Positions 6,168 to 9,196 of a stretch of 64,000 nt of DNA are shown in pieces; the stretch's first letter is position 1, and the number at the start of each line of letters is the position of its first letter. The notes under the pieces are model-generated. The model did no database searches. It saw only the letters and a program-made list of their open reading frames with translations, and was not told where the DNA came from. The DNA comes from Nitrospirota bacterium (GTDB taxonomy: Bacteria; Nitrospirota; 9FT-COMBO-42-15; HDB-SIOI813): the NCBI GenBank assembly GCA_016212215.1, contig JACRGV010000047.1:2680-66679 (forward strand). The letters run 5' to 3'. The position numbers were made by a program, and so were the translations under genes.

Positions 6168-8528
6168 TTATATTTTCCTGCTGTCATTCCCGTGCAAACG
6201 GGAATACAGAAAAAATGAAATGACTATCAATATAAATAAAACGCCAACCGAGGCAATCTTTCCTGCCACTGTTGTTTTTACCATAAAACTGCTGAACATT
6301 ATAGCAGGTATAAGACTAATCTTCACTATTGATTTTAATGTAGTATTTTTTTCTATTGTTTTTGCAAGATAGGGGCTGTAATAATAATATGTGGAAACAA
6401 AGTATCTGCCGGGGAAATTTGTTAATAAGTATCTGTCACGAAATTCTCTTAAAATATTTACATACGGGTGCAGTGGGGAACCAAAGGCAGCGGTTGCAAT
6501 AAAACACCTTTTATCACTTTTATTTGTGCTGACTTTATTAGAGATGACTGAAGTGCTGTTTGAAAGGTTAGTTGCATCACAAATCCGTTCAGTGCCTGGA
6601 TTCATTGTTACAGGATTACTCGCAGTTAGAGATGCTGTTGGTATAAGATTTCCAAGCGATGCGGTTATCGTTGATGTCACGGCGTCTGAAGCAGCCAGAA
6701 AGCCATTGCTGTTAATAACTGCATAAGGAGAATCTGATGACCATACAAAACCGTTTTCGAGTATCTGGTTATTATTGTCCTTCATAATGACGTAATACTG
6801 TTGCTTCCCCTTTTTACCGTATCCGGTATTTTCTGTAACTATGGAAGCGGCGCCAGGTCTTATTAAGATAGATGATGTATTATATGATGCGGATGTATAT
6901 GATGCCGTTATAAGATAACTCCTATAGTGAACGACTGATGTATTGAAATCGGCGGTTAGCGGGATAACAACGACCTCAGTATAAGGCCCGCTGCTGCTGA
7001 ATCCCTTTATTGAGATGGAGCCTGCATTAGTTGATGTGTCGGTTAATAATTCAGTGACATCATATACCGAATCGTAAGATTTGAATCCTACGACCATTAC
7101 GCTTATATCACTGCTGCCGTCAAATTCTATTTTCAATGAGCCGCTACCTGCCGGGGCTGTGAACTTGTAGTATGTTGCAGACAAAGGGTCTAAAGTGCCG
7201 TCTATATTTTCAGTACCCGAGAAATTTTCAAATAAGGTTTGAGGAGGGTCAAAGGTGTAAAAAGGGGGATCTGGATTGAATAGAACTGCAACAGGGTTGC
7301 CTGCACTCCCTGATGACTTGTAAATTTGTCCGTCGTCGTAAGTATAAGTCAGATTGGCAACACGTAATTCTTTTAACTCTTCTTCAAGGGAAGAGTTGTT
7401 CTTACTATCACTCAGTACCTTTTCTATCCCTGTTATTGCAGAGTCTCCATTCTTAATATTATTCCAAACATCATACACGAATTTTGATCCGTACTTTTCC
7501 GTCAGATGTTTTATCCAGACTGAGGTGCCGTACTGGAATACATCATACTCGTAAGTATATAACGGTAGTCCGGGATTCTGAAACCACCGGTCTAAATAGT
7601 TTACATAATCATTTACATCAGGATATATCTCATCCTCCATCCACGTGGCAGATGCCTCCATCCACCATCCATAGAGGTCAATATTATCTGTAATTTGAAA
7701 TTGAATGGTGTGGAAGAATTCATGGGCCGCTGTCACCATCATAGAATTTATTTGCGAAGATGAAAAGCCATAAAAGTCATTTTCAAGGATTAGATAAACT
7801 GAAGATACAGGCATATTTGCATCAAGCTGGGTGTAGCCATAAGCATTCAAGTCTGCGAGATAGACATCAAGCAGGCAGTCCCCGCCTTCTGTACCGTCTG
7901 AAGGGGGGGCATCATACCCCAACTCTTCTATCTCCTTTTTCCATACATTGTCAAGGATGATTGCAAAATTATCTACATAATCAGGAATATTATTGTTATT
8001 GTTATCAGCAGATGGAACAGCATCACAGCTCCCGCTAGTATTCGGGTCGCAGTTTGTGTTGTCAGTTGTATAATGAATCCTGAAGTGTCTAGCCGGGCTT
8101 ACAATACTTTGTAGTATTGTAATGTTTTCATAAAGAGGTGCACCGTCATCTTTCAAATCTCTGCTTAAGATACCTTTATGTTCCCTATTATTATAAAGTG
8201 CGGAAACGGCATTACTCCTTATTCCTGAAAGATACGCTGAATTATTAGAGGAGAGCAGGTGCCTGTTTGAGCGTGCCTCCATCATAATACCGGTTGCTGA
8301 TTTAATCGGGACTCTCGATTTAAATTCTTCCGGCAAACTGTCTTGCCGTATGACAGCAGAGACCTTGTAATTTAGTGCATCTCTGTATGTAAGCCGGCCG
8401 CTTCTGTAAGCGTTATCTATAAGCTCAATGCTTGTGAGGTCTCTCGCATTTGTAATTGCCGGAGATAACATAAGGTAGGCTGACAATGCAAAAAAGAGAC
8501 TAAAACAAAATGTAAATTTAGTTTTCAT
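6168..8528 (-). CDS. Secreted HExxH zinc-metalloprotease-like protein with a C-terminal Cys-containing sorting/anchor motif, embedded in the T2SS operon
   Basis: 786 aa. Has a signal peptide and an HEFFHTIQ (HExxH) motif with a downstream Glu-rich region. The C-terminus reads [28 protein letters not shown] followed by two hydrophobic helices. It lies between gspK and gspL. Confidence 0.55.
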   Translation of the reverse strand: [786 protein letters not shown]

Positions 8529-9196
8529 CAGTCAATAAGAACAAAACCGGACCTGAGATTTTTTATGAGGGTCTTGCCCTGGGTGACTTCAATCTCAAGT
8601 TTCTCTCTGCCTCCTTCTTTGCTCAAATAATATCTGCCTGCTGGTACTTCAAAGGTGTAATGACCATTCAGGTCAGTCTTTTTATTCATAACTTTTTCAT
8701 TAGCTTCAAGTAGAATAGCACTATTTTTACTAAAGCCCTTTATGCCGTTATTATATTGAAGCTTTCCGCCCCTTATAGGTTGATATACAACACCTATGAT
8801 AAAGCCGGAATCGTCTGTCCTGATTTTATCTATTACAACATCAAGATTAATAGTATTTTCCTCTCCTGCTTTTATATTTTCAGCCCTGGGGATAAACCCT
8901 TCTTTTGTAAAAAAGATAACAAGATAATTGTTTTTTGATACGGGGATGTCAGAGATGTTAAATTCTCCTTTAATATCGGTTTTAAAATTATTAAGCGTAA
9001 ACCCGTCAAAGACAGTCACATCAGCATTATCCACAGGAGAGCCATTCTTATCCTGTACATGTCCGTAAATGCCTTTTCTTGTGTCTGTTGTTCTTTGAGA
9101 AGCATGGCAGTTCATGGAGAAAAAGGCTGTTGATAATAGCATTATTGTTATTAAATGAAGACATATTAGCTTCACCAAAAAATCTCCATGGCTCAC
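8528..9196 (-). CDS. Carboxypeptidase-regulatory-like (CarbopepD_reg, Ig-like beta-sandwich) domain protein. The true start is probably the GTG near 9175, because the 5' end of the ORF runs into a REP element.
   Basis: Two tandem beta-sandwich modules (GHVQDKNGSPVDNADVTV..., GVVYQP...GHYTFEVPAGRYYL) are typical of the CarbopepD_reg family. Signal peptide is KLICLHLITIMLLSTAFFSMNCHA. Confidence 0.5.
   Translation of the reverse strand: MSHGDFLVKLICLHLITIMLLSTAFFSMNCHASQRTTDTRKGIYGHVQDKNGSPVDNADVTVFDGFTLNNFKTDIKGEFNISDIPVSKNNYLVIFFTKEGFIPRAENIKAGEENTINLDVVIDKIRTDDSGFIIGVVYQPIRGGKLQYNNGIKGFSKNSAILLEANEKVMNKKTDLNGHYTFEVPAGRYYLSKEGGREKLEIEVTQGKTLIKNLRSGFVLID

Follow-up and report, generated by a model that had tools for sequence, protein, structure and literature searches.

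The locus studied here raises the question of why an operon for a type II secretion system (T2SS) should carry, between the core genes gspK and gspL, a predicted zinc metalloprotease and a small companion protein. It lies in a 64,000-nucleotide stretch of a Nitrospirae metagenome-assembled genome (MAG; GenBank assembly GCA_016212215.1, contig JACRGV010000047.1, positions 2,680 to 66,679), which we refer to as the window and in whose coordinates positions are given unless another locus is named. On the minus strand, which also carries every feature of the operon and of the genes upstream of gspC described below, the window holds a complete T2SS operon (2928–18825) with the gene order gspC-D-E-F-G-H-I-J-K, an open reading frame (ORF) for 222 amino acids, an ORF for 786 amino acids, and gspL-M-N. 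A preliminary sequence-only reading had pointed to two extra genes between gspK and gspL; these are the ORF at 8528–9196, whose product we call the partner, and that at 6168–8528, whose product, 100% identical to HZA08_04260, we call the protease.

We put at about even the chance that the pair represents a dedicated, membrane-tethered T2SS cargo together with a CpaB-like helper, and that this module is functionally part of the T2SS in whose operon it resides; that the protease is secreted we infer from gene order in uncultured genomes (MAGs). The proteins fall in the curated families MXAN_6640/DUF6055, CFI-box-CTERM (a C-terminal domain, hereafter CFI-box) and CarboxypepD_reg. The embedding of a cargo-like pair between core gsp genes appears to be undescribed, as does a genomic link between the CFI-box and the T2SS.

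The two-gene module is fixed in one clade and recurs in T2SS operons of sister lineages

Both ORFs are tightly packed within the operon: the stop codon of the partner and the start codon of the protease overlap by 1 nt, and only 6 nt separate the protease stop codon from the gspL ATG. The full order C-D-E-F-G-H-I-J-K-partner-protease-L-M-N is retained in the related loci L001–L005 and L009–L011, in which the proteases are 47–65% identical and the protease gene often overlaps gspL. When metagenome contigs were scanned with a GspK alignment, the partner was found directly after gspK in each of the contigs that had a GspK at least 51% identical and a readable downstream region (6/6), and in none of the 71 contigs with GspK identity below 50%; in 41 of these 71, gspL came directly after gspK. 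The K-partner-protease-L arrangement is present, at 47–65% protein identity, in at least 12 independent contigs, and the insertion, though confined to one Nitrospirota clade, is fixed there. A radical-SAM/archease/RtcB gene set beside the T2SS operon (42–2498 in the window; downstream of gspN in L001–L005) is syntenic throughout this clade, which confirms the orthology of the loci.

Conservation to this extent refutes a recent, strain-specific mobile insertion, to which we assign almost no credence. The GC content is slightly lower over 8000–9500 (0.37–0.38 vs 0.40–0.45), and dispersed hairpin repeats occupy the gspJ/gspK and gspK/partner spacers, as might be expected of such an event. However, no direct or inverted repeats were found to flank the two-gene pair, and the hairpin repeats are lineage-specific and bracket gspK rather than the boundaries of the two-gene insertion. 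Because flanking repeats are lacking and the genes overlap or nearly abut, we do not regard the module as mobile. The sequence-only reading had proposed to compare the K-[x]-[x]-L arrangement across related genomes, and the comparison thus revealed an arrangement fixed across a clade rather than a strain-specific insertion with repeats at its borders.

In sister Nitrospirota lineages, proteases that are 30–35% identical are encoded inside T2SS operons at other junctions (D/E and F/G). The order is C-D-[partner-protease]-E-F-G in L013, E-F-[protease]-G in L016 and L158, and D-E-F-TPR-FecR-[589-residue CFI-box protein]-[partner-protease]-G...N in L007 (TPR, tetratricopeptide repeat). In view of the recurrence of this protease at different positions within T2SS operons, we regard a functional tie to the T2SS as well supported. 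The 589-residue protein of L007 (7451–9220 of that locus), encoded within the T2SS operon directly upstream of the pair, is a Big_1 immunoglobulin (Ig)-like protein with a CFI-box at its end.

An alternative that bears directly on this recurrence is that the pair only borrows the transcription of the operon, for example through co-regulation within an envelope programme, and is not mechanistically connected with secretion. In its favour, the genes of many family members and of most CFI-box proteins lie elsewhere, and a crude neighbour-joining (NJ) tree of the proteases, in which the K/L clade is sister to a group with the D/E and F/G forms, is compatible with one insertion in an ancestor and later shuffling; it does not discriminate between a single old capture with subsequent rearrangement and repeated captures, which are equally possible. 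Nevertheless, the module has been retained in T2SS operons although their GspE proteins are only about 52%, and the proteases 30–35%, identical; it occupies three different junctions, always on the same strand; and the L007 operon holds a second CFI-box protein. Moreover, an operon of about 12 kb accounts for, by our estimate, about 0.3–0.4% of a genome of 3–4 Mb, so that repeated residence within it would be unlikely without selection. We therefore consider hitch-hiking of this kind improbable.

Paralogues with a CFI-box are also encoded outside T2SS operons (L006, L039, L043, L056, L069, L084), in some cases in a genome that also has an embedded copy (L006 with L013; L084 with L011). A general adjacency of CFI-box and T2SS genes was considered and not seen; the link is limited to this protease lineage and the Ig-domain protein of L007.

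The larger protein is a predicted zinc metalloprotease with a modelled gluzincin fold

Over residues 168–406, the 786-residue protein matches NF045524 (MXAN_6640 family putative metalloprotease) with 223.2 bits against a cut-off of 140, and its catalytic part matches PF19527 (DUF6055) with 46.1 bits against a cut-off of 27; a weak profile match to NF040510 was also obtained (E 3.8e-4). An AlphaFold2 (AF2) model, built from 120 homologues, has a mean predicted local distance difference test score (pLDDT) of 81.8 and a predicted template modelling score (pTM) of 0.78. It consists of a signal helix, a helical N-terminal region (33–113), the catalytic domain, two beta domains, a linker, and a five-helix C-terminal bundle. 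When the PDB was searched by sequence, using a profile of the family, no match was obtained, and only the comparison of folds succeeded.

The protein is predicted to be secreted or anchored and begins with a Sec-type signal peptide (residues 1–28; 8445–8528), recognised by sequence, hydropathy and a predicted helix at residues 2–21, in which MKTK and a hydrophobic core are followed by ITNA and, after a cleavage site judged by eye, R. The catalytic domain (residues 140–405; 7314–8111) contains the zinc-binding and catalytic motif HEFFH (residues 269–273; 7710–7724). Each of 29 homologues has H269, E270 and H273, and across 120 homologues the conservation of these residues is 90% or higher; E291 (7656–7658), the probable third zinc ligand at gluzincin spacing (HExxH-X17-E), is likewise invariant in 29 homologues. 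The invariance of these four residues fits the gluzincin signature HEXXHX(8,28)E (PMC9266454), and with the HExxH motif, a downstream glutamate ligand and a thermolysin-like fold the protein belongs among the gluzincins, clan MA(E). Thus, the proposal that HEFFH marks a zinc metalloprotease withstood both the profile search and the search for a metalloprotease fold: the protein is a predicted zinc metalloprotease with a modelled gluzincin (M30-like) fold.

The catalytic domain is followed by a beta-sandwich that resembles pre-peptidase C-terminal (PPC) and collagen-binding domains (residues 430–545; 6894–7241), by a second small beta domain defined by AF2 strands (residues 574–639; 6612–6809), and by a disordered, poorly conserved linker (residues about 638–674; 6507–6611; pLDDT <50).

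The relationship to characterised proteases is distant; the weak NF040510 match is a point of likeness to the M30 and Svx/AvrXca gluzincins. Compared with the M30 peptidases hyicolysin and lugdulysin (7bb8; PMC9266454), the protease is only 15% identical to lugdulysin. A reference cited in PMC9266454 describes Svx in its title as a T2SS-secreted gluzincin; on the Svx model, however, the protease scores 19 bits against a cut-off of 625, and it differs from the M30 and Svx/AvrXca proteases in its accessory domains and C-terminus. Our literature search returned no publication on MXAN_6640 and, for DUF6055, one irrelevant mention; MXAN_6640 is also not in one supplementary file of the myxosortase paper.

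The CFI-box is a conserved helical domain ahead of a terminal membrane helix

The sequence-only reading had seen in the C-terminal region of the protease a resemblance to a described C-terminal domain, which it could not name. The motif that it singled out begins at residue 675 and ends at residue 704. Residues 675–742 (6303–6506; ...LREFRD...YYxxSP...LxP) are the curated CFI-box-CTERM domain, matching NF041770 with 93 bits against a cut-off of 40 over profile positions 1–68 of 69, that is, nearly full-length. AF2 predicts helices at residues 677–682, 688–701, 705–727 and 729–751. The two hydrophobic helices reported to follow the motif are likewise present, the first at residues 733–751 (Kyte-Doolittle value about 1.5) and the second, a terminal transmembrane helix followed by a basic tail, at residues 757–775 (6204–6260; Kyte-Doolittle value 2.37). 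The domain ends 44 residues before the C-terminus of the protease with a hydrophobic helix after it, as befits a C-terminal domain.

The CFI-box is the most conserved region of the protease, with a mean pairwise identity of 0.61 vs 0.43 for the catalytic domain, whereas the terminal helix has a sequence identity of 0.18 among homologues, yet is hydrophobic in all of them. A conserved CFI-box combined with an unconserved helix is what one would expect if conserved machinery reads the domain as a signal. Some family members, from Nocardioides, Latescibacterota, Ignavibacteria, Zixibacteria and further groups, lack a CFI-box; these are not embedded in T2SS operons, and several bear C-terminal domains of the type IX secretion system (T9SS; PF18962) instead. 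The replacement of the CFI-box by PF18962 in other phyla suggests a role of the CFI-box in export or surface anchoring. The T9SS-type members (P0049, P0068, P0090) belong to the same catalytic family (28–30% identity), and in these it is the C-terminal module that determines export across the outer membrane and attachment to the surface; however, the T9SS C-terminal domain is a T9SS-recognised beta-sandwich, while the CFI-box is helical, membrane-associated and, here, linked to the T2SS.

A profile search of 1.84 billion representatives recovered CFI-boxes in 28,608 proteins at E ≤ 1e-3 and in 21,771 at E ≤ 1e-10, where the count of more than 21,000 refers to protein clusters at 50% identity. 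All 150 listed representatives, bar a few internal or duplicate cases, have the domain at a distance of about 100 residues from the C-terminus, and the host proteins range from 146 to 3,234 residues in length; those that are named come from Nitrospirota, Thermodesulfobacteriota/Geobacteraceae, Gammaproteobacteria and Alphaproteobacteria. A literature search for CFI-box and CFIATAA found no paper on the domain.

Tripartite sorting tags consist of a short motif, a transmembrane helix and an Arg cluster (10.1101/2023.06.07.544157). Despite its invariant Cys motif, helix and basic tail, the CFI-box does not have the layout of such tags (GlyGly-CTERM, MYXO-CTERM or PEP-CTERM type): its Cys motif and final helix are set apart by about 55 conserved residues that include three predicted helices.

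Stand-alone CFI-box proteins of 100–140 residues were considered as independent genes and set aside as probable C-terminal fragments in the two contexts that we checked. In L090 an fn3 ORF directly adjoins the CFI-box ORF and the genes next to it are visibly split, and in L089 a large Ig-domain ORF and a gap of 930 nt lie upstream of the CFI-box ORF. A further short protein, P0175 (122 residues), has a lipoprotein signal peptide (LTGC) with the CFI-box directly after it and a helix, and may be a real gene; its sequence hints that the CFI-box may have a function of its own beyond the tethering of passengers.

The partner is a predicted membrane-anchored, transthyretin-like protein

The partner ORF (8528–9196) encodes 222 residues as listed. 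Its annotated GTG start at 9196 falls within a dispersed non-coding hairpin repeat, which makes the GTG at 9175 the likelier start; the protein would then probably have 215 residues and begin with MKLICLHL..., a signal peptide. Residues 43–120 match PF13620 (CarboxypepD_reg) with 55 bits, above the profile cut-off, and the fold is the seven-strand beta-sandwich of transthyretin-like domains. The AF2 model (pLDDT 79) has an N-terminal helix, two beta-sandwiches (42–120 and 130–205) and an unstructured C-terminal tail (216–222), in agreement with the earlier description of a two-module carboxypeptidase-regulatory-like protein. The hydrophobic N-terminal helix (4–27) is a putative anchor, and many homologues have a Cys directly after the hydrophobic core of the signal, in a lipobox-like position.

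Homologues of the partner keep the motifs FDG and GFxxGxxYxPxRGGK and an invariant C-terminus, TxIxNxRxGxxLxD; the tail ...RSGxxL(I/V)D is invariant, yet disordered in the AF2 model. The L007 partner is a true homologue (35% identity, E 4e-29), as is that of Geomonas oryzisoli (E 7e-11), whose pair is not part of a T2SS operon; indeed, the partner is homologous to the ORF directly upstream of the protease even outside T2SS operons. With its gene adjoining that of the cargo candidate and its predicted inner-membrane anchor facing the periplasm, the partner has the features of a helper-type protein. The two genes form a conserved pair, and their reading as a dedicated substrate with its accessory, in a cargo-specific T2SS, is plausible.

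The sequence-only reading had also raised the possibility of a protease associated with the pseudopilus tip (GspK-I-J), which we now judge very unlikely. Only the adjacency to gspK in this clade speaks for it, whereas neither protein has an N-methyl/pseudopilin motif or similarity to pseudopilins, the protease has a membrane anchor at its C-terminus, and the module of the sister lineages adjoins gspD/E or gspF/G and not gspK.

Cargo with a helper, or accessory of the machine?

Dedicated or dominant substrates that are co-encoded and co-regulated with their own T2SS include SslE/YghJ (E. coli T2SS-beta), PulA (pul) and LapA (Hxc), and SslE is, moreover, a large surface-associated zinc metalloprotease. 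The genes for these substrates are located at the edge of the cluster or divergently, not between K and L as here, and the proteins use N-terminal lipidation, whereas the anchor of the protease described here is C-terminal.

A close parallel to the pair is CpaA-CpaB of Acinetobacter, a T2SS-secreted zinc metalloprotease and an adjacent membrane-bound chaperone (PMC4713064, PMC7542363), whose C-terminal tail blocks the active site of the protease (PMC7542363). Here, too, a zinc metalloprotease gene lies beside a small gene for a product that is predicted to be N-terminally anchored and periplasmic, and the C-terminal tail of the partner is invariant, disordered and ends in Asp. Unlike CpaB, however, the partner comprises two transthyretin-like sandwiches with no relation in sequence or fold; CpaA is a metzincin without a C-terminal anchor; and the gene order differs, the helper coming first here.

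For the C-terminal region, a similar system is that of VesB, GlyGly-CTERM and rhombosortase. VesB of Vibrio cholerae combines a protease and an Ig domain with GlyGly-CTERM, and its export depends on the T2SS and on the PDZ domain of GspC (PMC6219818, PMC12369372). The protease resembles it in the succession of catalytic domain, Ig-like beta domain and membrane-spanning C-terminal sorting domain (here a putative one), the GspC encoded here has a PDZ domain, and a rhomboid gene lies near gspC. The route of VesB, comprising Sec export, a transient inner-membrane tether and T2SS-dependent surface localisation, may also serve as a model, with the T2SS dependence here deduced from gene order. In contrast, VesB is a serine protease rather than a gluzincin metalloprotease; GlyGly-CTERM is a short tripartite tag, while the CFI-box is a conserved helical domain of 68 residues with an invariant Cys ahead of the helix; vesB is outside the eps operon, whereas the pair is inside the gsp operon; and the rhomboid encoded here fails the rhombosortase model (TIGR03902; 24.7 vs 84 bits) and is to be regarded as a generic rhomboid.

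A second comparison is with MYXO-CTERM and the myxosortase MrtX, for which the Myxococcus T2SS is the proposed route to the surface (PMC11980579; 10.1101/2023.06.07.544157). Both tags have a C-terminal invariant Cys, a transmembrane helix and a basic tail, both are spread many-to-one over diverse surface proteins, and the protease family is named for a Myxococcus protein. Unlike that of MYXO-CTERM, the CFI-box motif is not directly beside the helix, and the window contains no gene for a CPBP/Rce1-type protease. Because the tag layout differs, the rhomboid fails the model, and no CPBP protease is encoded in the window, the system described here belongs neither to GlyGly-CTERM/rhombosortase nor to MYXO-CTERM/myxosortase.

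If the pair is indeed a tethered cargo with its helper, the following sequence of events can be envisaged: (i) both proteins would be taken over the inner membrane by the Sec pathway; (ii) the protease would fold in the periplasm, with its C-terminal helix tethering it to the inner membrane; (iii) the membrane-anchored partner would bind the protease and might place its ...L(I/V)D tail in the active site so as to block it, in the manner of CpaB on CpaA; (iv) the folded protease would be moved over the outer membrane by the T2SS; and (v) the CFI-box with its invariant Cys would be the element recognised for processing, surface retention, or both. The outcome would be a cell-surface or released protease for the degradation of extracellular proteins. 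The operon also encodes GspN, a protein for which a role in the passage of lipid-anchored cargo through the T2SS has been demonstrated (PMC12802150).

Several observations weigh against a tethered cargo with a CpaB-like helper. Genes inside the operon, such as here between gspK and gspL, typically encode machine components rather than cargo, and the layout of the CFI-box departs from that of the known T2SS-linked tripartite tags. A cognate sorting enzyme was not found in the window, in which the rhomboid scores below the rhombosortase cut-off and a CPBP/Rce1-like gene is lacking. The partner is no homologue of CpaB or Lif and has a fold unrelated to theirs, and the T2SS-embedded copies in L016 and L158 are without a partner. 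Most of the CFI-box proteins examined are not encoded near T2SS genes (L006, L008, L039, L043, L056, L069, L084, L087, L171), and the three operon positions may stem from one ancestral insertion and so may not be independent.

Some of these points favour a different role, in which the protease is kept in the inner membrane by the CFI-box and the terminal helix and works in the periplasm for the T2SS itself. Its tasks could be the maturation or quality control of cargo, the clearing of jammed substrates or pseudopilins, or the remodelling of the envelope round the assembly platform, with the partner as its regulator. The location inside the operon, between gspK and a gspL that the protease gene overlaps or almost reaches, and the fixation of the module within the clade are as such a role would have them; without cleavage, the C-terminal transmembrane helix would keep the protein in place, and the window revealed no sorting enzyme. 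Conversely, the variable junction (K/L, D/E or F/G) is a better fit for a passenger module than for a stoichiometric subunit; close paralogues of the same architecture are encoded far from T2SS genes, some in the same genomes; the family is otherwise joined to T9SS secretion domains; a signal peptide with PPC-like and Ig-like domains is the architecture of a secreted protease; and the module is wholly absent from the 41 related T2SS operons in which L follows K. On balance, we find a machine accessory unlikely, though it is the strongest competitor of the tethered-cargo reading.

Core genes, spacers and further genes of the window

The core genes of the operon are recognised by curated models, so that it can be assigned to the T2SS (Gsp) type, and the orthologous D, E, F, G, I and J genes in L001–L004 match the expected Pfam families. 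Upstream of the pair lies the minor pseudopilin gene gspK (9310–10278; NF037980, 193 bits, cut-off 130). Downstream lie gspL (4527–6161), with a PilM-like cytoplasmic and a PilN/GspL_C periplasmic domain (PF11104, PF05137, PF12693; weak match to TIGR01709), gspM (3921–4487; PF04612, 28 bits) and a Leptospira-type gspN (2928–3800; TIGR04411, 121 bits, cut-off 50). The genes gspJ, I, H, G, F, E, D and C occupy 10405–18825, as judged by their ORFs and translations, with gspC (17923–18825) having the Pfam domains T2SSC and PDZ.

The gspK-to-partner spacer (9197–9309) contains purine-rich 7-nt tandem repeats and a GC-rich hairpin that is a copy of a dispersed repeat (CCCCCTCCCGTCAAGGGAGGGGG + AATTTCTTTC). 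Copies are located at 9208–9240, 10327–10359 and 49547–49565, that is, in the gspK/partner spacer, in the gspJ/gspK spacer and upstream of a TPR gene, and a similar stretch is found at 49700–49760. The hairpins in the gsp spacers are preceded on the mRNA strand by 7-nt tandem repeats (GTGAGCA / GTAAGCA / GAAGTAA), and the related loci are without such hairpin spacers. The repeat may be an element of the repetitive extragenic palindromic (REP) kind through which the stability of the mRNA or the expression of single segments of the operon is influenced.

Three genes upstream of gspC is the gene for the rhomboid-family intramembrane protease (21254–21919; PF01694, 120 bits), which is only a candidate for processing of the anchor. 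Between the two are genes for a BamD-like lipoprotein (20254–21120) and for a PorV/PorQ-like outer-membrane beta-barrel (19097–20194; NF033709, 45.7 bits, below the cut-off). In L004 and L011 a rhomboid gene is directly upstream of gspC, and in L010 a PorV-like gene is. The rhomboid, BamD-like and PorV-like genes could be accessory to the handling of anchored cargo.

A secreted 260-residue protein (62526–63308) has at its C-terminus a Cys motif (SSSGLGCGT), a hydrophobic helix and a basic tail (RLKRLTRVR), in this order. Its tail has the layout of a tripartite sorting signal and matches no curated family; the protein lacks a CFI-box and is matched by none of the NCBIfam and Pfam models. The kinship with the protease that had been suggested on the basis of a shared FRD does not hold: in the tail, GCGTIKSYHNDFRDG, FRD stands 10 residues after the Cys vs 21 in the protease, and we attribute it to a chance tripeptide. 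In the neighbouring region (54993–62524), a 1761-residue protein and a 744-residue protein with He_PIG Ig domains share the C-terminal motif F(Q/E)PW..YW(I/V)(N/H)V, which suggests a common, uncharacterised C-terminal domain. The region 44856–54196 encodes four tandem paralogues of about 690–750 residues, each with an N-terminal membrane segment and C-terminal TPR repeats, followed by a TPR protein of 246 residues.

Implications for T2SS substrates

The choice of substrates by the T2SS and its handling of membrane-anchored substrates are still an open problem, and among C-terminal tags only GlyGly-CTERM and MYXO-CTERM have been tied to the T2SS experimentally. Going beyond this locus, we tentatively suggest that the CFI-box represents a new class of T2SS-coupled anchoring and sorting domain, helical, juxtamembrane and with an invariant Cys. 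The Nitrospirota operons would, in that case, encode its prototype cargo together with a transthyretin-like chaperone or inhibitor, the ...L(I/V)D tail of which may dock to the protease or to the PDZ domain of GspC. The clade-wide embedding of the module in T2SS operons, at positions that shift between lineages, turns the widespread CFI-box into the subject of a concrete and testable pathway hypothesis, and the finding also proposes a new kind of cargo helper. As CFI-box proteases occur in genetically tractable Geobacter and Geomonas relatives, these proposals are directly testable.

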